Made by a program: the position numbers and the translations under genes. Shown here one piece after another: positions 8,374 through 36,561 of a stretch of 64,000 nt of DNA. Source of the DNA: Candidatus Hydrogenedentota bacterium (GTDB taxonomy: Bacteria; Hydrogenedentota; Hydrogenedentia; Hydrogenedentales; SLHB01); the NCBI GenBank assembly GCA_045863335.1, contig BTVY01000002.1, positions 96,462 to 160,461 on the forward strand, in the 5' to 3' direction. The first letter of the stretch is position 1; each line of letters starts with the position of its first letter. Below the pieces are notes generated by a model that ran no database searches, was not told where the DNA came from, and saw only the letters and a list, made by a program, of their open reading frames with translations.

Positions 8374-9126
8374 TTGGATAATGAGAAGGTACTTGTAATC
8401 ACCGGCGCCAGCCGGGGCATTGGGGCTGCAACGGCCCTTCTTGCGGCGGAGCGGGGATACGCCGTGTGCGTCAACTACGCGAAACGACGTGACGCGGCGG
8501 AATCGGTTGTATCGCGGATCATTGCGAACGGAGGCCAAGCCCTCGCGGTCAGCGCGGATGTGTCGGTGGAGTCGGAGGTGGTCGCGCTCTTCAAGACGGT
8601 TGATAAGCATTGGGGCTCCGTATCGGCGTTGGTTAACAATGCGGGCATCCTGGAAACCCAGATGCGCGTCGAGACTATGGACGCGGCCCGGCTCACGCGG
8701 ATCCTCGCAACAAACGTTACGGGGAGTTTTCTGTGCGCGCGGGAGGCCATCCGGCGCATGTCGACGCGAAACGGCGGGAAAGGCGGGGCCATCGTCAACG
8801 TGTCCTCCGCGGCTTCACGTCTTGGCTCCGCGGGCGAATACGTCGATTATGCGGCGTCCAAAGGTGCGATGGATTCATTCACCATTGGTCTCTCTCAGGA
8901 AGTGGCCGCGGAAGGGATCCGCGTCAATGCGGTCCGGCCCGCGTTCATCTACACGGATATCCATGCCAGCGGCGGCGAACCAGGTCGCGTGGACCGCATC
9001 AAAAGCGCGATTCCCATGAAGCGTGGCGGTCAACCGGAGGAGGTCGCAGCGGCTATCCTGTGGTTGTTATCCGATGAGGCGTCGTACGTGACCGGCAGTT
9101 TTGTCGATCTCGCCGGTGGAAAATGA
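8374..9126 (+). CDS. Short-chain dehydrogenase/reductase
   Basis: TGASRGIG, NNAG, YAASK motifs; AGGAG before TTG 8374. Confidence 0.95.
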   Translation: MDNEKVLVITGASRGIGAATALLAAERGYAVCVNYAKRRDAAESVVSRIIANGGQALAVSADVSVESEVVALFKTVDKHWGSVSALVNNAGILETQMRVETMDAARLTRILATNVTGSFLCAREAIRRMSTRNGGKGGAIVNVSSAASRLGSAGEYVDYAASKGAMDSFTIGLSQEVAAEGIRVNAVRPAFIYTDIHASGGEPGRVDRIKSAIPMKRGGQPEEVAAAILWLLSDEASYVTGSFVDLAGGK

Positions 9127-27347: not shown

Positions 27348-28444
27348 GGTCCGGCTTCGACCTCCGAAAGTACGACGTTGTCGAGCAGCACGACCGCGTC
27401 CGCTCCCTCAAGAACGACATGAGGCACGCGAAGGGTGACGGTCTCTCCGGTGTTTCCAGGCACTTGAAACCGGAACGTGTAGCGGTGTGGCGCGCCATCG
27501 GCGGTTAGCGGTTGCGGGTTCGCGAAGGATAGCCCGGTCGATTCGTTCAGGATCTCCACGCGAGCCTGTCCCCACGCATAGGCATCGAGCGCAAGTTCAT
27601 ACGTGGTCCCCGCGATCATTTGGAGGGACTGATAGAAGCCAGCCGGGGCGGCAACAGCCTGGAGCCTTGCACAAACGTCGCCTTCGGTCGCTTGCGCGCC
27701 ATGTTGGGTCACTTGACACTGTTCCGCCGACCATTCTGGAAACGAACCCGATGCCGGGTCCCACTCCTCGAATCCGGCGTTCGCCATCAGAACAATCGAA
27801 GACAACGGCGCAGGTTGTTCGGATGGCTCCTCGCCGGTGCCCGGGCTGGCGACATCGTCGATGATGGTGCGCGTGACCCGCATGTTCGCAGTGGCCACAG
27901 CGGCGAGGGGTTGACGAACGATTTCCAGCGTGTCAATACGGAGGGCCTGATCGCTCCGTTGCAGTCGCTCGATGAAGAGCGTGATGTTCTGGATCGGGGC
28001 CGGTTCCGTTTTGAAATTAATCTGATAGCTGCGGTAGCCGTCTTCGTGATCCACGAGGCTGCCCAGCGGCATCTGCGGAATGCTAACCAGCACGTCATTC
28101 GGGTTTGCGGCGGCAGGCATGGGACTTCCCGGCGCAGGGACATTGCGCAAAGACAATCTCGTGATCTCGCGACGAAGGCGGTCGTGAATTTCCTCTTGCG
28201 TCCATTGGCTGGAGTGCTGGGAGGCCATCGCGTCAAAGGCCCGGTTGACGGGACCCGCCTGTGCGACGAGTTCCTCGTAGGACGCCAACTGCAATTGAAG
28301 ACTGTCGATGGTCGCATCCATGAGGGCGAGGCGGTCGGTGGCAGCGCGGTAGCCCAGCATCGCCAAGGCCGCCCCGATGCAGAGTCCCGTGAGTACGAGA
28401 AGGCGTCGTTCCGACGCGGACAGGGTGTGGAATCTCCGCATCAT
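27344..28444 (-). CDS. GspM/PilO-like protein fused to a CBM4/9-like domain
   Basis: LSASERRLL+TM, coiled coil, ferredoxin-like segment; C-terminal NAGFEEW...GTTYEL...LLDNV. Confidence 0.65.
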   Translation of the reverse strand: MMRRFHTLSASERRLLVLTGLCIGAALAMLGYRAATDRLALMDATIDSLQLQLASYEELVAQAGPVNRAFDAMASQHSSQWTQEEIHDRLRREITRLSLRNVPAPGSPMPAAANPNDVLVSIPQMPLGSLVDHEDGYRSYQINFKTEPAPIQNITLFIERLQRSDQALRIDTLEIVRQPLAAVATANMRVTRTIIDDVASPGTGEEPSEQPAPLSSIVLMANAGFEEWDPASGSFPEWSAEQCQVTQHGAQATEGDVCARLQAVAAPAGFYQSLQMIAGTTYELALDAYAWGQARVEILNESTGLSFANPQPLTADGAPHRYTFRFQVPGNTGETVTLRVPHVVLEGADAVVLLDNVVLSEVEAGP

Positions 28445-29928
28445 TCTGAATCGGCCTCCGGTTCGCCTTCCGTCTCGGATGTCGCAAAGGGAATGTTGAT
28501 CTCGTATTGGATCACGGCCTGGCCTTGTTCTTGATCTTCGCGGTACGGCCCGAGACCGGCGCGGGCAAACTGCGGGATATCCTCGCGTCCGGCTTCGCGC
28601 AGGGCGTCCGCCAGCGCGTAGACGAGCGTGAGCGTTTCCGAGCGGCCGGCGAGCGTGATCTCTTCCCCGTGGGAGAAGGAATAGCGGGTAATGTTCAATC
28701 CGGAGGCCGGCGTGAGTTCGCTGATCTTTGCGAGTAGCTCCAAGGCGCTGCCACGGCGGTCGAGGTGCTGTTGGAGGCGGATCAATTGACGTCGCTTGGC
28801 CTCAACGCTGAGCGCAGTCGGTTCAATCTCCGTGATGCGGTTTTGGAGTTCGGCGATGTAGCGGGAGCGTTGGAACGCGGCCTGGCCATAAAGCGCGAGC
28901 AGCGCGATCAGGATTGCGAGCACGAATCCGCCGACCTTGGCGAATTTTCGGCGCGTTTCGCCGCGGCGGCGTGCCTGTTCCAGCGATGCCGGTACAAGAC
29001 TAATGGATACGGGAGCGCGATTCTGCGCGGCAAGGGCAGCGCCGAGCGATGCCAAAGGAAGCGTTGCCACGCGATCCGCACCCTGCGTACAAAGGCTCCG
29101 GGCGAACTGGGCGGGCTGGCACTCATATCCGAGCGTGTCGGAGAGTGCCGAAGCAATTTGTGCGGTGTCCACCCATTCCGACGACAAGTAAACGCGTTCC
29201 GCGCCGATCCCGTCTTCGGAATCGCGGCGGTGGGCGGAAACCGTTGCGCGGACTTCCGAGGCGAGTTCTTCTACCGCTTCCGATCCCACAGCGGTCGCGG
29301 CGGACCAGTCCTGCAGCGTGGCGACGGCCCGCCCGTACTCAAGCCGGTTGCCGTTGAAGACCAGCACCTCGACACCGCCGGATGCGAGGTTCGCGAGGGC
29401 GAACTTCTCCCCTTCTTTGCCGTGAGCGAGGATGGCGCTGGTCGCGATGCAGGCCGTGCTCACGGAGATCTGTTCGGGCTCAACCCCCGCCGCACGGAGA
29501 ATGGCGACGTGGAATTCGACGACATCGCGATGGGCGAAGACGGCCAGCACACGAGACTGGCCGTCGGGTAAACGCTGGAGCAGGCATTGGTCCATGACCA
29601 GTTCATGCTCGGGATAGGGCACGTAATCCTCGACCCCGAGGCGGACCATGCCGTCAAGTTCTTGTTCGTCGTGGGACGGCAGAAGGAGAATGCGCGCGGT
29701 CATGTCGTGACGCGGCATAACCGTGTGGACGCGATCCGCGGCAATGCTGCGGGTCTTGACGAACTCTTCGACAGCCAATTCGAGGCTGCCATCCTGGGCA
29801 GACCAGACGCCGAGTTTAGTTTCCCAAGAGAGGACCTCGATCCCCTTGGGAGAAGGCTTGACGCGCAGCCAGGCGATGAGGTGCTCGTCAAACTGCAAGA
29901 TACTGATATTTCCAGTTTTACGAGCCAA
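28441..29928 (-). CDS. GspL-like (PilM-PilN fusion) protein
   Basis: Actin-like cytoplasmic domain, ISLVP, TM, coiled coil and PilN-like periplasmic domain. Confidence 0.75.
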   Translation of the reverse strand: MARKTGNISILQFDEHLIAWLRVKPSPKGIEVLSWETKLGVWSAQDGSLELAVEEFVKTRSIAADRVHTVMPRHDMTARILLLPSHDEQELDGMVRLGVEDYVPYPEHELVMDQCLLQRLPDGQSRVLAVFAHRDVVEFHVAILRAAGVEPEQISVSTACIATSAILAHGKEGEKFALANLASGGVEVLVFNGNRLEYGRAVATLQDWSAATAVGSEAVEELASEVRATVSAHRRDSEDGIGAERVYLSSEWVDTAQIASALSDTLGYECQPAQFARSLCTQGADRVATLPLASLGAALAAQNRAPVSISLVPASLEQARRRGETRRKFAKVGGFVLAILIALLALYGQAAFQRSRYIAELQNRITEIEPTALSVEAKRRQLIRLQQHLDRRGSALELLAKISELTPASGLNITRYSFSHGEEITLAGRSETLTLVYALADALREAGREDIPQFARAGLGPYREDQEQGQAVIQYEINIPFATSETEGEPEADSE

Positions 29929-30859
29929 AATCCCCCTCCGACCAATTCAAAACGGTAGCGGTTCCGTTGGCTACTTGCACCGTAGCCTTCGAAACCGCGC
30001 GTACCTTACCTTGCCGCAATGTCGCAAACCCGGTGATTGTAAAGTACTCCGATTCAAACTTGCAAAACCGGGCGATGGGTTCGAGATCGTTCATGCGAAC
30101 ACCGGTGACCGAGGCAATCTCCTCGACACTTCGGAACCGGCGGTCGTCGGCGGTTTCCATCTCGCCATCGGCCCCGGCACGATAGGAGAGGACCACGGCC
30201 GCGACGGCAGGGTCCAGGTCGGGCAAGGATTCGAGCACTTCTCGCGGGGCCGTGTTGACGTTGACGCGGCCGTCGCCGTAGATGGTGAAGAGATCCCGTA
30301 ACCCGGGACGGTCTTTCGAACCGTACCAGTCCGAGTCACTGATTCCTTCGAGGAGACGGGCCTCGTCGATAGCCAGGAAGGGCATGGGCTCGTCGTTGCC
30401 CAAAGGACCGCCACGGCGGCGGAGGATCGCGGATACCGTGGTGAAGCTGAGGATATCGATCTCGTCAAAGATTTCTCGCGGCGCCGTATTCAATGAGATC
30501 TTGCCCTCCGCGTCCTCCACAGTGAAGGTGACCTCATCGTTCTCCAGAAGCGCATCGCTGCCGAGGTCAAAGAAGTTGCCCTCGGTGAGCATGTTTTTCT
30601 GCGTCTGATAAATCGCAATATACGAGTCGCCCCCGTACTGCTCGACGAGTTGCTGTACAAGGGCCTGATTTCGCATATAGGCGATCCCATACTCGACGGC
30701 GCCGCGCGCGAGGTGCTGGGTGCGTGTGTGGTCGATACTCAATGCCGCGGCGCGCTGTTCAAGGAGCGCGCGGCGTCCAAAACCGATCGCAAGCACAGTC
30801 AAAATTGCCAGCATCCAAATGACAGCCACCAACACGAATCCGTGTTCCCCGCGCTTCAT
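29918..30859 (-). CDS. gspK: T2SS minor pseudopilin K
   Basis: G|FVLVAVIW; DAEGKISLNTA; GRVNVNTAPREVL. Confidence 0.9.
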   Translation of the reverse strand: MKRGEHGFVLVAVIWMLAILTVLAIGFGRRALLEQRAAALSIDHTRTQHLARGAVEYGIAYMRNQALVQQLVEQYGGDSYIAIYQTQKNMLTEGNFFDLGSDALLENDEVTFTVEDAEGKISLNTAPREIFDEIDILSFTTVSAILRRRGGPLGNDEPMPFLAIDEARLLEGISDSDWYGSKDRPGLRDLFTIYGDGRVNVNTAPREVLESLPDLDPAVAAVVLSYRAGADGEMETADDRRFRSVEEIASVTGVRMNDLEPIARFCKFESEYFTITGFATLRQGKVRAVSKATVQVANGTATVLNWSEGDFGS

Positions 30860-31620
30860 TGGAAGGCCCCCCCCTCCGTGTCGATGGATTCTTCTTCCAG
30901 TTCCGTGGTGGCGCCGCGAAAAACGACGAACGTGGAGAAGGTCGTTTCACCGGATTCGCCGTTGTCGTCGAGCAGGGTGAGATCAATGCGAATGCCCTGC
31001 GGGATTCCGGAGCCTTTCGGATGATCGTCGCGCACGATGAACTCCGCCGGTGGAGGCGGACCCTGGTCGGTCGCGTCCTGAACGGTGGTAATGGGCGGAT
31101 TCCAGTAGTATCGTAGTTCGAAGTTTTTCACGCCATAGGCGAGTTCGAAATCCTTTTCCGCGGCCATCTTGATAATGGTGCGATCGATCTCCCCTTCCCC
31201 GGGCGGCGCGGACGGAAGCGGGCTCTTGACCAACCGTTCCTCGCGAAGGAGAATCCGGCCCTCGCCGTCAGGATCTTTTCGCGTGCGGTAATGAATCTGG
31301 ATGACCTGCGGCCTCGAATCCTCGTCCACGTCCAGCGGCGGCGACACGGCGAAGAAGGTGAAGTCGTCATTGCTGCCCTCAACGAGGTGAGCCGTGCCGG
31401 GAATCACGTTCTGGAGTTCCTGGGTCATGATGCTGAGGGCGGTGCGCGCATCCTGGTACGTTGCGATATTCGCTTCCCCGAGACGCCAGAGCCGGACGGT
31501 GGAGCTGAAACACAGAAAGACGCCGCTCATCACGATCGTGAGCAACATACATGCCACGAGAAGTTCGGCCAGGGTAAACCCCGCCTCACCGTTTCGGGAA
31601 TTGGTAACCAGCTTCTTCAT
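30856..31620 (-). CDS. gspJ: T2SS minor pseudopilin J-like
   Basis: G|FTLAELLVA; C-terminal PQGIRIDL; position before gspK. Confidence 0.75.
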   Translation of the reverse strand: MKKLVTNSRNGEAGFTLAELLVACMLLTIVMSGVFLCFSSTVRLWRLGEANIATYQDARTALSIMTQELQNVIPGTAHLVEGSNDDFTFFAVSPPLDVDEDSRPQVIQIHYRTRKDPDGEGRILLREERLVKSPLPSAPPGEGEIDRTIIKMAAEKDFELAYGVKNFELRYYWNPPITTVQDATDQGPPPPAEFIVRDDHPKGSGIPQGIRIDLTLLDDNGESGETTFSTFVVFRGATTELEEESIDTEGGAFQ

Positions 31621-32443
31621 CCTCTTTCGTGTACACTTGGTCGGGCGACACGAGGGTTTCCAGGGATCGCTCGAAGGCGCGACCCGCTCGCGACCACGAG
31701 ACGGTCACATGAATCTTGCCGAGATACGGCACGGGATACTCCACGGGTTGCGCGAGCGTGGCCGTGGCAAGCGGCGGCAGTTCCGGCTGCGGAACGGGCA
31801 CCGTAGATACGTTCCACCGGTATGAAAACTGGGGATGGTCATCGCCGAAACCACCCGATTGCGAGGCGCCCTCGATTAGCGCCCGTTGCAGTTCAAGGTC
31901 GGACATGACCTGCTCAAGCAGAAATCGCGCGGTGGTGAAATCGCGCGCCATGGCGCGGGTTATCAGGGCTTCCTGCATGGCGCGGTTGACTGCTACGCCA
32001 CCGATACTGAGCACCATCAGCGCGACCATGGTCTCCACGAGGATCCAGCCGGCGCAGGATTGGATTCGGCGCGCGGCGATAGATCGCTGGTTGTGGCATG
32101 GAGATGGGAAGAACATCCCCCTTGATCCCCCTTCAAAGGGGGAGTTAATCGATCCCAAGCCACTGGTGAGTATAGCTCGCCGCTGAGTCGACTTGAAGGT
32201 AGTGGCAACGTTCACAACGCTTAGCATTGAGAGTTGCTCAGTCGATTGCTGTACTTCGGAGCGACAGCGCGACCTGATAACTGACACGTTCAAACTGCGC
32301 AATTCCCCCTTTGAAGGGGGATTAAGGGGGATGTTCCTGATGCATTGGCGATCGCCTTCCGCTTTCGCCGATGGCATGGAGAACTCAGACCTGAGAGGTA
32401 CCGGTTTCATAGACCCAAGGGTTTGTAAATCGCGGTGCGTCAT
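31586..32443 (-). CDS. gspI: T2SS minor pseudopilin I-like with element-expanded leader
   Basis: G|WILVETMVAL, GGFG..FSYRW, IHVTVSW; ATG 32443 overlaps the gspH stop; alternative ATG 32116 lies inside the repeat arm. Confidence 0.75.
   Translation of the reverse strand: MTHRDLQTLGSMKPVPLRSEFSMPSAKAEGDRQCIRNIPLNPPSKGELRSLNVSVIRSRCRSEVQQSTEQLSMLSVVNVATTFKSTQRRAILTSGLGSINSPFEGGSRGMFFPSPCHNQRSIAARRIQSCAGWILVETMVALMVLSIGGVAVNRAMQEALITRAMARDFTTARFLLEQVMSDLELQRALIEGASQSGGFGDDHPQFSYRWNVSTVPVPQPELPPLATATLAQPVEYPVPYLGKIHVTVSWSRAGRAFERSLETLVSPDQVYTKEDEEAGYQFPKR
32111..32336. repeat. Inverted-arm palindromic element, copy B (in gspI leader)
   Basis: GAACATCCCCCTTGATCCCCCTTCAAAGGGGGAGTT ... AATTCCCCCTTTGAAGGGGGATTAAGGGGGATGTTC. 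Confidence 0.9.
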
Positions 32444-33120
32444 TCCGATTTTACCTCGAAACGGCCGAGGCGGCCTTTGGTTTCCAGTTCGAGGTCGTCT
32501 CCGTCGGCGGTTTCCATCTTGATGGTTGCGTAGTCGCAGGCGCCGGTGCCGTAGAACGAAATGAAGTGGGCTTCACGGTCCCTGTCGAAACGCGCCTTGG
32601 GCCGCTCGAACCCGATCCCTTCGGGGAGTTGCTTTACTTCCACCGGACCTTCGTCTAGATTGGCGAATTGCTTTACCCCTTCAGCGTCATTGTACTGGCG
32701 CATGACCCAATACTCGCGCGACTCTTCGCGCATGTAGAACCGGTATTCGGTGCCGTCAGTGATGGCGCGTTCCTGGGCGTACTTGAGGTAGGCCACGAAA
32801 TCGCGGGTGGCGCGGTCCTGGCGGACGCGCGTAAGTGATCCCTGGTAGATGGGCACGACGGCGGCGGTCAGCAGGGCGATGATAGTCATCACCACGATGA
32901 GTTCGATGAGCGTGAAGCCGGTTGAACGGGAAGAAGAACATCCCCCTTTGTCCCCCTTCAAAGGGGGAATTCTGCTATTCGGGTCCCTCGATAATGGGGC
33001 AGCCCTGTGCATTGAAACGTCTGCGCCGTATGCCGCGCGTGCGCCGCGAAGCGGCTGCGCCCATTCCCCCTTTGAAGGGGGACCAAGGGGGATGTTGGTC
33101 TTTGGCATCTGGGACGTCAT
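32440..33120 (-). CDS. gspH: T2SS minor pseudopilin H/FimT-like with element-expanded leader
   Basis: GGAG-N5-ATG at 33120; G|FTLIELIVV after 68 residues; LKYAQERAI, ISFYGTG. Confidence 0.8.
   Translation of the reverse strand: MTSQMPKTNIPLGPPSKGEWAQPLRGARAAYGADVSMHRAAPLSRDPNSRIPPLKGDKGGCSSSRSTGFTLIELIVVMTIIALLTAAVVPIYQGSLTRVRQDRATRDFVAYLKYAQERAITDGTEYRFYMREESREYWVMRQYNDAEGVKQFANLDEGPVEVKQLPEGIGFERPKARFDRDREAHFISFYGTGACDYATIKMETADGDDLELETKGRLGRFEVKSE
32936..33096. repeat. Inverted-arm palindromic element, copy C (in gspH leader)
   Basis: GAACATCCCCCTTTGTCCCCCTTCAAAGGGGGAAT ... ATTCCCCCTTTGAAGGGGGACCAAGGGGGATGTT. Confidence 0.9.
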
Positions 33121-33161
33121 GTTGACTCCGAAGTCCTCACTGCCTGATGGCCGTCGGGTTG

Positions 33162-33557
33162 CTACTCCGCGATGGTGCTGGCGTTGGTATCCCAAACGGA
33201 GATGTCGTCCGCGGTGCCGGACTGCGCGTCCTGGCCACGGGAGTAGAGATCGTACTTGTTCTTCTTGCCGGGATAGGCGAACACGTACGGGTTACCCCAG
33301 GGATCTTTCTCCAGCTTAATCACGTATTCTTTCTTACCGCCGACGAGTACGTCCAGGGATTTGGGATACTGATCGTTGTGTTCCAGCGCGTAGGCTTCGA
33401 CAGCTCGTTGATACACCGCCAGATCGGCGCGGGCGCGCGTGATCCGGGCCTCCGTGCCACGCCCGGCGACACTGATGGTCACCATGCCGGCGAGAATGCC
33501 GATTATGACCATGACCAAAATGAGTTCCAGCAGGGTAAACCCGCCTGATGCCTTCAT
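33162..33557 (-). CDS. gspG: T2SS major pseudopilin G
   Basis: GGAGG RBS; MKASGG|FTLLELILV; DPWGNPY; YDLYSRG.D...GTADDI. Confidence 0.92.
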   Translation of the reverse strand: MKASGGFTLLELILVMVIIGILAGMVTISVAGRGTEARITRARADLAVYQRAVEAYALEHNDQYPKSLDVLVGGKKEYVIKLEKDPWGNPYVFAYPGKKNKYDLYSRGQDAQSGTADDISVWDTNASTIAE

Positions 33558-33596: not shown

Positions 33597-34808
33597 CTAT
33601 ACGACGTTTGCGCTCAGTGTCAACATGGGATACAGCATGGAAATCACCAGCACGCCCACGACGATCGCCATGATGACAATCAGGATGGGCTCGAGCAAGG
33701 CGGTCATCGCGCGGACGGCGCGCTCCACTTCCACGTCGTAGGCGTCGGCCATTCGCTTCGTGACCGCGCCGACGCGACCGCTTTCTTCGCCGACGGCGAA
33801 CATGTTGCACACCATGGGCGGAAAGTGGCGCGTTTGTTCAAGACCGGAACTGATGCTGTCGCCCTCGGCAACGCGTTCCTGCACGATGCCGACTTCCTGG
33901 GCGATCACCTTGTTACCAAGCGTCTCCACCGTGATTCGCAGGGATTGGAGAATCGGCACGCCGTTGTCGAGCAGGGTTCCGAGGGTACGCGCAAACTGCG
34001 CCATGACGTACTTTTGGACCACGGTGCGGAGCACGGGCACGCGCAAGATGAGTTCATCGAACTGCATGCGTCCGTTTTCGCTGCGGTACCACGACACCAG
34101 GCCGCCGGCAATCGCTGCAAGGAGCAACAAGACAAGCCACCAGAATTTTCCCATGAATCCGCAAATCGCAAGAACGACGACGGTGATCAAAGGAAGGGTA
34201 GCGTCGAAATCGTCGAAGACTTCCTGAAACATAGGGAACACGAAAGAGACCATGATGAATATGGCGACGGACCCCATCAGTAACAAGAAGGCCGGGTAGA
34301 CCATGGCCGAAACGGCTTTGCCGCGGAGTTCCTCGTCCTGTTCGCCGAAGTTGACGATGCGCCAAAGGACCTCTTCCAGCATGCCGCCAGATTCTCCGGC
34401 TCGAACGAGGCTGCATTGCATGGCGTTGAACTGTTTAGGGTGCCGCTCCAGGGCCTCCGCGAAGGTGCTGCCTTTCTGCACTTCGTCGCGCAATTGATCG
34501 ATGACGGCCACAAGCTTGGCGTTCTCCGTCTGCTGCACGAGAGTGGCGAGGGCGCGTGTCAGCGGCATGCCGGAATCGAGCAGGGTCGCGAGCTGGCGGA
34601 AGAAGATGTTCCGGTCTTTCTGCCGGATACGAATGAGCGCGCGCCGGAGGGAGTCTTTCTTTTCCTCGCCGGTGTATTCTTCGATGGAGATGGGGAAATA
34701 GCCCATCTCGCGCAGACGGCTCAGGGCTGCGCGACGGCTCTCCGCTTCCAGGACGCCCGTCGATGCTTCGCCGGGACCTTTCTTGACCTCATACTGAAAC
34801 TGGGGCAT
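33597..34808 (-). CDS. gspF: T2SS inner-membrane platform protein F
   Basis: FFRQLATLLDSG, AGESGG.L, FARTLGTLL, GEESG, LLEP. Confidence 0.95.
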   Translation of the reverse strand: MPQFQYEVKKGPGEASTGVLEAESRRAALSRLREMGYFPISIEEYTGEEKKDSLRRALIRIRQKDRNIFFRQLATLLDSGMPLTRALATLVQQTENAKLVAVIDQLRDEVQKGSTFAEALERHPKQFNAMQCSLVRAGESGGMLEEVLWRIVNFGEQDEELRGKAVSAMVYPAFLLLMGSVAIFIMVSFVFPMFQEVFDDFDATLPLITVVVLAICGFMGKFWWLVLLLLAAIAGGLVSWYRSENGRMQFDELILRVPVLRTVVQKYVMAQFARTLGTLLDNGVPILQSLRITVETLGNKVIAQEVGIVQERVAEGDSISSGLEQTRHFPPMVCNMFAVGEESGRVGAVTKRMADAYDVEVERAVRAMTALLEPILIVIMAIVVGVLVISMLYPMLTLSANVV

Positions 34809-36561
34809 GTTCCGCCTCGCTGCCGTCGAGCAGGTCGGACTCGGCGGTCACGCGGACCACTTCTTCGAAGGTCGTCCGGCCCTGACAAACGCGCATCCAA
34901 CCGGATTGACGCAGGGTGCGCATCCCCAACTCCACCGCGCGCCGCTTGATGCGCGTGGACGGCTCGCGCTGGATGGTCATCTCCTTGATGGCATTGGAGA
35001 AGGGCAGAATCTCGTAGATGGCGACGCGCCCGCGATAGCCCGTGTGGCGGCAGTTCTCGCAGCCCGCGCCTTTCTTGAAGGTCGCGCCTGCGGGCGCCTG
35101 CGGCGGCAAGCCCAATTGGGCGTAGTCCGCCGAGGTTGGATCATAGGGCTGAGCGCAGTCGGGGCAAATGCAACGGACGAGACGCTGGGCGATCGACGCG
35201 ATCATCGTGCTCGCGATCAAGAACGGTTCGACGCCCATATCCGTGAGTCGCGTGACCGCGCCGGCGGCGTCGTTCGTGTGGAGCGTGCTGAACACGAGGT
35301 GGCCGGTCAAGCTAGACCGGATGGCCATCTCAGCGGTTTCGTAGTCGCGGACCTCGCCGACGAGCATGATATCAGGATCGTGCCGAAGCATGGAGCGCAG
35401 CGCGGCGGTGAAATCGAAACCGATCTGAGACAGCACCTGCATCTGGGTAATACCCTTGAGCTGGTACTCGATGGGATCCTCGATGGTAATGATCTTGTGC
35501 TCGAGCTTATTGAGCTTGCTCAGGGCTGCGTAAAGCGTCGTGGTTTTTCCGCTACCGGTTGGCCCGGTGACAAGAATCATCCCATGAGGGCGCTGGATAA
35601 AGTTGTTGAAGAGATCCAAATCCTCTTTCATGAAACCGAGTTCTTCGAGGGTCATGAACATGGAGGACCGGTTAAGGATTCGGAGATTCACCGATTCCCC
35701 ATGGGGCGTGGGCAATACGGAGACGCGAAGGTCAAACTGTTCGTCACCGAGCGCCGCGCGGATCTTGCCGTCTTGCGGAAGCCGCTTCTCCGCGATGTTC
35801 AGGTTGGCCATAATCTTGATGCGTGAGACGATGGCGGGATGAAACCCGCGGATCGTCGGCGGCGTCGGTACCGGGTGCAACACCCCGTCCACGCGGAAGC
35901 GCACGCGCAACTGGTCCTCGAAGGGCTCCATGTGAATGTCCGTGGCGCCGGTCTTGATGGCTTCGGCGAGCAGTTCGTTCACGAACTTGATGATGCTGGC
36001 GTCGATCTGGTCGTCGCCGAGATTCATTCCCGCAGTGCTGGAATCAAGGCTCAGGACGGTGCCCACACTTTCATTGTCGCTTAAGATGCGTTCGACCGTG
36101 TCGGCGCCGACGCCGTAAAGGGCCTTGATGGCGCGGGTGATTTCGTCGGGAGTGGCGACCACGGGTTCGATGCGCTTCTTGAGAACGAGACGGATGTCAT
36201 CAAGCAATTGGTGGTTCAGGGGCTCGCAGATGGCCACCACGATCGTGCCGTTCCGGTCTTCCAGGGGGACAAAGTTGTAGTGGGTCACGTAACGCGCCGG
36301 AATCCTGGAGACAATCGATTCCGGAACGTCCATGCGCGACGGTACGACGAACCGCAACTCGCAGAACTCGGCGAGGGCGCGATAGACGGCTTCCTGGGTG
36401 GCACAGCCGGATTGGACGAGCGTATCCGCCAAAGACATGCCACGGCTGGCCGCCTCCTGCTTGATCTGGGCGAGGCGTGTTTCGTCCACGACGCCGTTAC
36501 GTACGAGTTGTTTCTCAAAGGCCAGTTCGCCAGGCACAGTCAAATCTCCGAAAAACTCCAC
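34789..36561 (-). CDS. gspE: T2SS/T4P assembly ATPase
   Basis: TDIHMEP, EKRLPQDG, GPTGSGKTT, LRHDPD, TGHLVFSTLHTND, two CxxC. Confidence 0.95.
   Translation of the reverse strand: MEFFGDLTVPGELAFEKQLVRNGVVDETRLAQIKQEAASRGMSLADTLVQSGCATQEAVYRALAEFCELRFVVPSRMDVPESIVSRIPARYVTHYNFVPLEDRNGTIVVAICEPLNHQLLDDIRLVLKKRIEPVVATPDEITRAIKALYGVGADTVERILSDNESVGTVLSLDSSTAGMNLGDDQIDASIIKFVNELLAEAIKTGATDIHMEPFEDQLRVRFRVDGVLHPVPTPPTIRGFHPAIVSRIKIMANLNIAEKRLPQDGKIRAALGDEQFDLRVSVLPTPHGESVNLRILNRSSMFMTLEELGFMKEDLDLFNNFIQRPHGMILVTGPTGSGKTTTLYAALSKLNKLEHKIITIEDPIEYQLKGITQMQVLSQIGFDFTAALRSMLRHDPDIMLVGEVRDYETAEMAIRSSLTGHLVFSTLHTNDAAGAVTRLTDMGVEPFLIASTMIASIAQRLVRCICPDCAQPYDPTSADYAQLGLPPQAPAGATFKKGAGCENCRHTGYRGRVAIYEILPFSNAIKEMTIQREPSTRIKRRAVELGMRTLRQSGWMRVCQGRTTFEEVVRVTAESDLLDGSEAEHAPVSV

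Follow-up and report, generated by a model that had tools for sequence, protein, structure and literature searches.

MITE-like palindromic repeats in frame in the leader-coding regions of two adjacent pseudopilin-like genes

Rickettsia palindromic elements (RPEs) are palindromic repeats of about 150 bp that lie in frame within genes and are translated without destroying the host protein (PMC10969869). Bacterial MITEs (transposable elements of the miniature inverted-repeat type) also have occasional intragenic copies, for example of ERIC or BOX, that make in-frame fusions (PMC10969869). Here we analyse a 64,000 nt stretch of DNA (the window) from a Candidatus Hydrogenedentota bacterium, corresponding to positions 96462-160461 of contig C2 (BTVY01000002.1) of its assembly (GCA_045863335.1, termed G000; 6.75 Mb, 105 contigs, 60% G+C). 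Open reading frames and their translations reveal a minus-strand type II secretion-like operon in the window, and two adjacent genes of this operon, encoding GspI-like and GspH-like minor pseudopilins, each carry an insert with inverted arms (termed e1 and e2 respectively) in the leader-coding region. On the explanation that we prefer, and which we regard as moderately probable, e1 and e2 are copies of a MITE-like repeat that are tolerated in frame because cleavable leaders are permissive.

A preliminary description of this DNA had proposed that the same inverted arms bracket 226 bp in gspI and about 160 bp in gspH, and a repeat search located both structures at these sites (Table 1). It had also proposed that both inserts lie upstream of the prepilin cleavage glycine in stop-free frames, giving leaders of 132 and 68 residues versus 6-14 residues in neighbouring pseudopilins. 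Translation agrees, yielding leaders of 68 residues for gspH and 132 for gspI versus 6 for gspG, 14 for gspJ and 7 for gspK. The ATGA overlap of the gspH stop and gspI start, and the GGAG-N5-ATG ahead of gspH, can be read directly in the sequence. The arms of e1 and e2 are 92-94% alike, and because the arm occurs 291 times in G000, a chance origin of the two structures is excluded. Neither interior has a second copy anywhere in G000, and that of e1 has no match in the five congeners searched (G001 to G005). Among other copies of the family, 140 of 582 frames are stop-free and 21 of 97 lengths are divisible by three; simple arithmetic on these counts puts the joint chance that e1 and e2 are both open and frame-preserving at roughly 0.002.

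The repeat family was defined by a blastn-short scan of G000 with the 33 nt arm. The 291 arms form 99 left/right pairs, leaving 93 arms unpaired, many of them at contig ends. Most pairs (80 of 99) span 151-167 bp, and the other 19 range from 188 to 699 bp. The consensus of 68 oriented typical copies is (GAA)GAACATCCCCCTTGATCCCCCTTCAAAGGGGGAAT - CGCAACGCTTCGCGTTGCG - about 65 variable nt - CAATTCCCCCTTTGAAGGGGGATCAAGGGGGATGTTC(TTC). Every 33-36 nt arm contains its own 7 bp hairpin, and a small inner hairpin is present once per copy in 68 of the 80 typical copies, the remaining sequence of about 65 nt differing among copies. Filled and empty orthologous sites were found for e1, e2 and three further copies, on contigs C66, C10 and C25. 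The family has most hallmarks of a MITE: a short non-coding unit, terminal inverted repeats, dispersed copies and presence or absence between relatives. Arms matching the exact pattern number 158 in G000, 155 in G004, 128 in G005, 83 in G003, 21 in G002 and 13 in G001, and are present in only 15 of 54 genomes of the taxonomic family.

The orthologous loci reveal the same polymorphism at the two pseudopilin genes. A gspH match exists in 39 of 41 related genomes, and the loci of 11 relatives (L002-L012) were examined. Element e2 occupies the same site in G000, G003, G005 and G004 and is absent in G001, G002 and six other genera; arm-less gspH leaders have about 8-26 residues. Element e1 is present in G000 and G005, where the contig breaks within it and the other half lies on L132, and is absent in G003, G004, G001 and G002, whose gspI leaders have 14-20 residues. 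Arm-less gspI leaders overall have 6-20 residues, as in MSACKRLVFETASG↓W of G003 (arrow, cleavage site). Orthologues without arms therefore have short leaders, and the long leaders are not seen without the element, as the preliminary description would have it. All five congeners, as well as G012 and G021, retain the gspI motif G↓W-I-L-V/L-E, and G↓Y is found in G013, G024 and G020. When the gspH leader (70 residues) was searched against proteins of 124-396 residues in a collection of 5.8 billion proteins, one match (226 residues, 81% identical) and nothing else was obtained. A contig from an RNA library (public runs) spans gspH with e2 plus a short, e1-less gspI leader; because DNA may be present in such a library and transcript ends are not visible in contigs, it says nothing about transcription or processing. 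The contigs of four public runs gave no e2-less allele. As a separate observation, the e2 interior is identical at 66 of 67 positions between G003 and G005 (L002, L003) despite a gspH synonymous divergence of 0.29, which suggests recombination between lineages around the gspG-gspH junction.

Both genes appear to have stayed in service after the insertions. The ratio of nonsynonymous to synonymous divergence (dN/dS) of mature gspH is 0.04-0.22 among the four e2 carriers at dS values of 0.35-0.86, and that of mature gspI is 0.10 between G000 and G005; these values indicate functional genes. The unprecedented leader lengths, and the failure of gspI to match any Pfam family, could be taken to mean that the insertions inactivated gspH and gspI and that the open frames are merely left over. 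This is scarcely credible given such ratios after insertion, at dS up to 0.86, and given that the mature parts (477 and 462 nt) are retained at full length in all six congeners.

The locations of other copies indicate how the two leaders may have come to be occupied. Using gene calls from a home-made open reading frame and hexamer gene finder (5159 genes), we classified 81 of the 99 pairs as intergenic, ten as lying across the 5′ end of a longest open reading frame, six as contained near a 5′ end and two as lying across a 3′ end; none of the 99 lies deep inside a gene. The 78 intergenic copies flanked by genes comprise 50 in tandem, 22 in convergent and six in divergent contexts, where the shares of intergenic bases (57%, 18% and 25%) predict about 44, 14 and 20 (chi-square about 15 by our own arithmetic). 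In tandem contexts the median position is 51.5 nt downstream of the upstream stop codon. Element e2 starts 64 nt past the gspG stop, and the whole e1 insertion starts about 40 nt past the gspH stop. These distances match the usual post-stop spacing, so both elements stand at the family's usual landing place, which in this tightly packed operon is the leader start of the next gene.

These features are consistent with a simple course of events. The family would normally drop into intergenic DNA a few tens of bases past a stop codon, and in the packed gspG-gspH-gspI operon that position would fall on the leader-coding start of the next gene. Both copies would have survived by adding a whole number of codons and no stop, with the extra residues confined to the leader. 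Prepilin peptidase would remove this leader at G↓F or G↓W, and the mature pseudopilin would therefore be unchanged. Most likely, gspH would be translated from its own ATG through e2, and gspI either from its ATGA-coupled start or from an ATG in the terminal GGGGGATGTTC of the e1 arm, giving a leader of 132 or 23 residues. Four further genes with N-terminal hydrophobic export-type signals would have taken the same route, and the same outcome in these genes would make cleavable leaders permissive sites, not targets.

Core features of class III leaders are present in both proteins: Gly at -1, a hydrophobic residue at +1, Glu at +5 and then a hydrophobic helix (G↓FTLIEL in GspH, G↓WILVET in GspI), and orthologues share this motif. 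The class III norm of a short, basic leader of a few to about 30 residues is exceeded when gspH and gspI are read from their upstream starts; arm-less orthologues conform to it, as would gspH and gspI of G000 if start codons within the arms were used. G000 carries two Peptidase_A24 (prepilin peptidase) genes (65 and 50.9 bits; C48:52502-52864 and C17:71762-72067). A six-frame scan for the motif G-[FWY..]-x-L-x-E followed by a hydrophobic helix gives 59 prepilin-type N-termini in G000, a large pseudopilin-like repertoire.

Of the 99 copies in G000, six lie within open frames, each of them ahead of a hydrophobic export signal at the N-terminus (genome baseline, 1907 of 4713 genes). They are those of the prepilin genes gspH and gspI, of a TroA/ZnuA-like lipoprotein gene on C66 and of genes with Sec-like N-termini on C10, C25 and C80. 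At C66, the site is empty in G005, with a native N-terminus of MMMRLIRDFDRKVRRVVARLNAIAALLAIAVLIAGC, and filled in frame between native start and lipobox in G000 and G003, both of which retain the native upstream start and its 24 codons. The C10 site is empty in G004 and G001 and filled with an open copy in G000, G005 and G003; the C25 site is empty in G001 and filled and open in four genomes; and the C80 copy is filled and open in G005. At C10 and C25, the sequence upstream of the element differs from the native N-terminus of empty orthologues. The only conserved peptides are encoded by the arms (NIPLxPPSKGE, then SPFEGGSRGMF or PPLKGDxGGC), interior peptides being different. Among the relatives, ten of the ten copies found at five loci are open, against a simulated neutral expectation of 5.6e-4 (product over nine counted copies), although these figures overstate independence because the relatives are kin, and the estimate is rough because some element ends are mislocated by about 10 nt.

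The preliminary description had viewed the leader as a safe harbour for the insert. The part of this idea that concerns a tolerated, removable site is supported by the purifying selection, by the open e2 frame in all four carriers and by the four additional N-terminal copies; targeting of class III leaders is not supported. Enrichment in these leaders over other coding sequences failed to appear, as only gspH and gspI among the 59 prepilin-like genes have an arm within 400 nt upstream. Likewise, the pattern of an arm end, 5-35 nt and a prepilin motif occurs in five of 133 genomes of the order at six places, namely four e2 orthologues, one ordinary ribosome-binding site and one gene that is not a prepilin gene. 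A link to secreted-protein genes in general was also considered and rejected, as 30 of 73 element-adjacent genes are signal-like versus 1907 of 4713 genome-wide (Fisher p 0.91).

That gspH has no in-frame ATG from the downstream arm to the cleavage site, as described previously, proved correct, and GTG is likewise absent; in all four carriers, the stretch from e2 to G↓F is free of both codons in frame. The earlier reading overlooked an in-frame TTG in the e2 arm and the in-frame terminal ATG in the e1 arm. The downstream arm reads ...GAAGGGGGATCAAGGGGGATGTTC, so placed that its ATG is in frame for gspI and for the C66, C10 and C80 genes and its loop TTG for gspH and the C25 gene; the third frame has TGA. 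Precursors might then begin at the arm TTG of gspH (15-residue leader) and the arm ATG of gspI, with the element acting as a portable ribosome-binding site and the upstream open frame being fortuitous or useful only in that ribosomes passing along it melt the stem. The two alternative starts are both in frame, and the resulting leaders would be short and basic like normal ones. The arm ATG is the sole ATG shortly ahead of the hydrophobic core at C66 and in the G005 and G003 orthologues of C10, and an Arg-rich peptide follows it. From the element to the middle of that core, the C66 lipoprotein gene of G000 has no in-frame ATG, GTG or TTG. Moreover, an ordinary gene of a relative uses AAGGGGGA-N6-ATG, so that the arm resembles a real ribosome-binding site.

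We nevertheless consider such a restart a doubtful, if serious, possibility, least doubtful for gspI. If the elements were untranslated, nothing would keep their frame, yet e2 is in frame and stop-free in all four congeneric carriers (G000, G003, G005 and G004) and remains open with its interior inverted in place, as tested in G000 and G004. Under neutral mutation, the share of trials that leave the e2 interior open is 39% for 30% divergence and 27% for 50%. The open copies of relatives at the five loci described above tell against restart in the same way, as do the lack of any purine-rich or Shine-Dalgarno (SD)-like stretch directly upstream of the gspH arm TTG and the retention of the native start and its 24 codons at C66. 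The kept open frames argue for ribosome read-through.

On a bolder reading, the repeat would be a portable 5′ module for genes of exported proteins, more than tolerated junk. The downstream arm would bring an SD-like box and an ATG, the open frame would let ribosomes from the upstream start melt the stem of about 35-40 bp, and prepilin peptidase, like signal peptidases I and II, would still recognize and remove leaders of 68-132 residues, which is several times the length of any prepilin leader known to have been characterized. A flip of the interior between species would change expression without breaking the frame. We judge this reading as a whole to be unlikely. Interior inversions are observed: at C62:17935-18214 the interior is inverted in G003 (L169/L177) relative to G000 and G005 (L172/L174), as judged by eye. 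For the e2 interior (32971-33062) in G004 (L004), the inverted alignment scores 4 and the direct alignment -11, where shuffles give -10.9 (sd 5.1), a modest signal. Both orientations were not seen within one sample among the contigs examined. A tandem duplication inside the G000 copy at C62:17935 makes it longer (280 bp versus 165 bp).

We also considered the elements as RNA. Stems in the operon mRNA might be a selected device (an attenuator, a processing site or a 3′-end stabilizer) that holds GspH and GspI low relative to GspG, the open frame being a side condition. The e2 region is predicted to fold at -119.5 kcal/mol (z -6.1, equalled by none of 200 shuffles) and the e1 region at -163.5 kcal/mol (z -5.2, equalled by none of 100). 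Between G000 and G003, the arms of orthologous e2 are identical at 69 of 70 positions, and the non-hairpin interior at 47 of 67, a difference similar to that at synonymous sites (0.28). The family also sits after stop codons, with convergent contexts enriched (22 versus about 14 expected) and divergent ones depleted (6 versus about 20). However, six other genera and two congeners keep the operon without the element, no U-tract follows the stem, and the C66 arms are no better conserved than their flanks. Arm conservation could equally reflect a role at the DNA level or homogenization among more than 100 copies, and the only RNA-library data are contigs, which are unable to show transcript ends. 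We regard a selected RNA device as quite improbable.

Element e1 is accompanied by two extra segments (Table 1). G005 carries the same downstream segment of 58 nt, reading RGMFFPSPCHNRRPFAARRVPACAG↓W. The two flanks of 64 and 58 nt share an 11 nt direct repeat, TCTCCATGCCA, with a score that was reached in 3 of 2000 shuffles. The gspI gene of G000 is longer than that of G003 by 354 nt, which equals 64 + 226 + 58 and a further 6 nt or so where the start of the leader can still be aligned (an 8-column gap). No donor for the e1 interior and the extra flanks was found in G000, where the 64 and 58 nt segments are single-copy. The C66 insert likewise exceeds its arm-bounded element, by a unique 20 nt (8471-8490) and about 58 nt (8654-8711), the latter identical at 40 of 58 positions between G000 and G003.

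Several points weigh against the explanation of tolerated MITE-like copies. Neither a target duplication nor a partner transposase was found. The explanation does not account for the 64 + 58 nt of unique sequence around e1. To our knowledge, leaders of 68 and 132 residues exceed any processed prepilin leader (about 30 residues at most), and a stem of about 35-40 bp beginning 24 nt past the gspH AUG could, by its predicted fold, hinder read-through. The start codons used by gspH and gspI are inferred from sequence, and restart at the arms may be possible for gspI (ATG, with an SD-like GAAGGGGGAT 9 nt upstream) and for gspH (TTG). When ATG codons are considered, the C10 orthologues from G005 and G003 have none directly before the hydrophobic core other than that of the arm.

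With regard to mobility, no consistent target-site duplication was present in the 99 flank pairs beyond the conserved GAA/TTC extension. None was readable at the empty sites of gspI, C62:2667, C1:102013 and C66, because all empty sites found differ by more than the element alone. No cognate autonomous insertion sequence with the same ends was seen in the G000 assembly, in which many contigs end in unassembled repeats that might conceal a partner. Collections of plasmids and phages gave no match to a consensus-like copy. An Rfam scan of positions 31900-33300 (E up to 10) gave no family, the best hit being mir-2545 at 24.7 bits versus a gathering score of 94. Identity as a REPIN/RAYT system was rejected, as none of 11 Y1-transposase (PF01797) matches in G000 has an arm hairpin within 1.5 kb.

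The arm is not confined to these genomes. A scan with a 31 nt arm (one genome per species) found mostly records titled Hydrogenedentota or Hydrogenedentes. Records of Bacteroidota, Chlamydiota, Calditrichia, KSB1 and Saccharibacteria contain it as well, usually once and within AT-rich intergenic sequence. Examples outside the phylum are Maribacter halichondriae (NZ_CP107030.1:1571572-1572202, L046) and Solitalea agri (L033), and further cross-phylum loci are L013, L018, L020, L024, L038, L039 and L084.

Other repeats are associated with the arms. In many G000 arms the hairpin loop is split by the end of another repeat, of which there are at least two kinds, beginning TGCAGTTCTGTGAGTACCGC or GTGCTGTCCTAAACA, and contigs break there (for example C27:1-69, C32:84535-84590, C57:1-56, C84:14052-14120, C66:26584-27144, C47:1-78, C55:38355-38411 and C28:30404-31102). 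These interruptions have the look of insertion sequences with a specific preference for the arm hairpin; the bodies of these repeats were seen only as contig-end fragments, and the single internal case (C42) is without a clear transposase frame. A second repeat family of about 145 nt occurs at about 20 places in G000 (C7:37800-37945, C5:35565-35705, C21:81961-82105 and C76:6616-6755 among them) and contains a single arm-like module, GGGAACATCCCCCTAAATCCCCCTTCAAAGGGGGACTTT, inside conserved flanks.

Gene identities in the operon (Table 1) vary in strength. GspH matches Pfam N_methyl (E 2.5e-7) and scores 52.8 bits with NCBIfam GspH, under the cut-off of 80. GspI scores only 17 bits with NCBIfam GspI, and a profile search with it returned no Pfam match, N_methyl included. 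Given these weak family scores, the names H and I rest mainly on gene order and the prepilin motif.

Table 1. Features of the type II secretion-like operon and of the elements in its gspH and gspI leaders (window positions).
Feature	Position	Strand	Remarks
e1, in gspI leader	32111..32336, 226 bp		arms 32111-32146 and 32301-32336 (36 nt, 94% complementary); 154 nt interior
e2, in gspH leader	32936..33097, 162 bp (typical family size)		arms extend to 32931-32970 and 33063-33102 (40 nt, 93%); 92 nt between
Extra segment, gene-upstream side of e1	32337..32400, 64 nt	-	in G000 and G005; absent from e1-less G003
Extra segment, gene-downstream side of e1	32053..32110, 58 nt	-	encodes FFPSPCHNQRSIAARRIQSCA directly ahead of G↓W
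Candidate gspI start	32114..32116	-	ATG in terminal GGGGGATGTTC of e1 downstream arm; would give 23-residue leader MFFPSPCHNQRSIAARRIQSCAG
Candidate gspH start	32959..32961	-	in-frame TTG, codon 54, hairpin loop of e2 downstream arm; would give 15-residue leader (M)KGDKGGCSSSRSTG
gspE	34789-36561	-	
gspF	33597-34808	-	
gspG, major pseudopilin	33162-33557	-	T2SSG 5.8e-16; NCBIfam TIGR01710 89.5 bits, above cut-off 88.85
gspH-like, minor pseudopilin	32440-33120	-	native ATG at 33120; 68-residue leader; G68↓F69 at 32919-32914
gspI-like, minor pseudopilin	31586-32443	-	ATGA-coupled start at 32443; 132-residue leader; G132↓W133 at 32050-32045
gspJ	30856-31620	-	
gspK	29918-30859	-	
pilM-like gene	28441-29928	-	

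Should the long leaders indeed be produced and cut, the lengths accepted by prepilin peptidase would go far beyond the known range, which bears on substrate recognition and on the engineering of pilin and pseudopilin fusions. For annotation, start-codon choice and signal-peptide prediction will err at such loci. A testable rule also follows, namely that genes can absorb such DNA in N-terminal export signals.

Among described systems, RPEs (PMC10969869, which cites Ogata et al. 2000) and the rare intragenic ERIC or BOX copies work in a similar way. The present elements resemble RPEs as in-frame palindromic repeats that would be translated with the host protein (PMC10969869). RPEs differ in lying predominantly inside open reading frames, in unrelated metabolic genes (PMC10969869), whereas here six of 99 copies do so, all in N-terminal export signals. 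RPEs are also marked by a family-specific conserved peptide; here 81 of 99 copies are intergenic, and the host is unrelated. Bacterial MITEs such as Correia, ERIC, BOX and RUP are alike in being short, non-autonomous, multi-copy, mostly intergenic and co-transcribed, with terminal inverted repeats and RNA stems (PMC10969869). They differ from the present family, in which the interior is largely unique to each copy while its length is conserved, and for which neither a target duplication nor a same-ended insertion sequence was found. Haloquadratum short mobile repeats (SMRs), of about 110 bp, share prominent inverted terminal repeats and are described as having no target duplication (PMC3119063). 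These are archaeal and unrelated in sequence, and no in-frame leader insertions are reported in the accessible part of that source (PMC3119063). Repetitive extragenic palindromic (REP) sequences and REPINs share the organization of hairpin modules that occur singly or as inverted pairs, after genes and in hundreds of copies; the present family differs in that no arm hairpin lies within 1.5 kb of any of the 11 Y1-transposase matches. REPINs are also not known to have spacers as long as the one of about 97 nt seen here.

In full-text literature, with partial coverage, neither signal peptides containing such elements nor prepilin leaders this long were found described, and in the accessible part of PMC8578077 the phrase 'unusually long' does not describe a leader. 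The nearest counterparts of the leaders are those of type IVb prepilins, which are likewise cytoplasmic and basic and are removed by prepilin peptidase after a conserved Gly. Type IVb leaders reach about 25-30 residues. They differ from the leaders of 68 and 132 residues described here, which were created by an inserted repeat. Most known in-frame selfish palindromes come from Rickettsia, whose mature proteins retain the insert; at the loci described here, the surviving copies lie in signals that are expected to be cut off.

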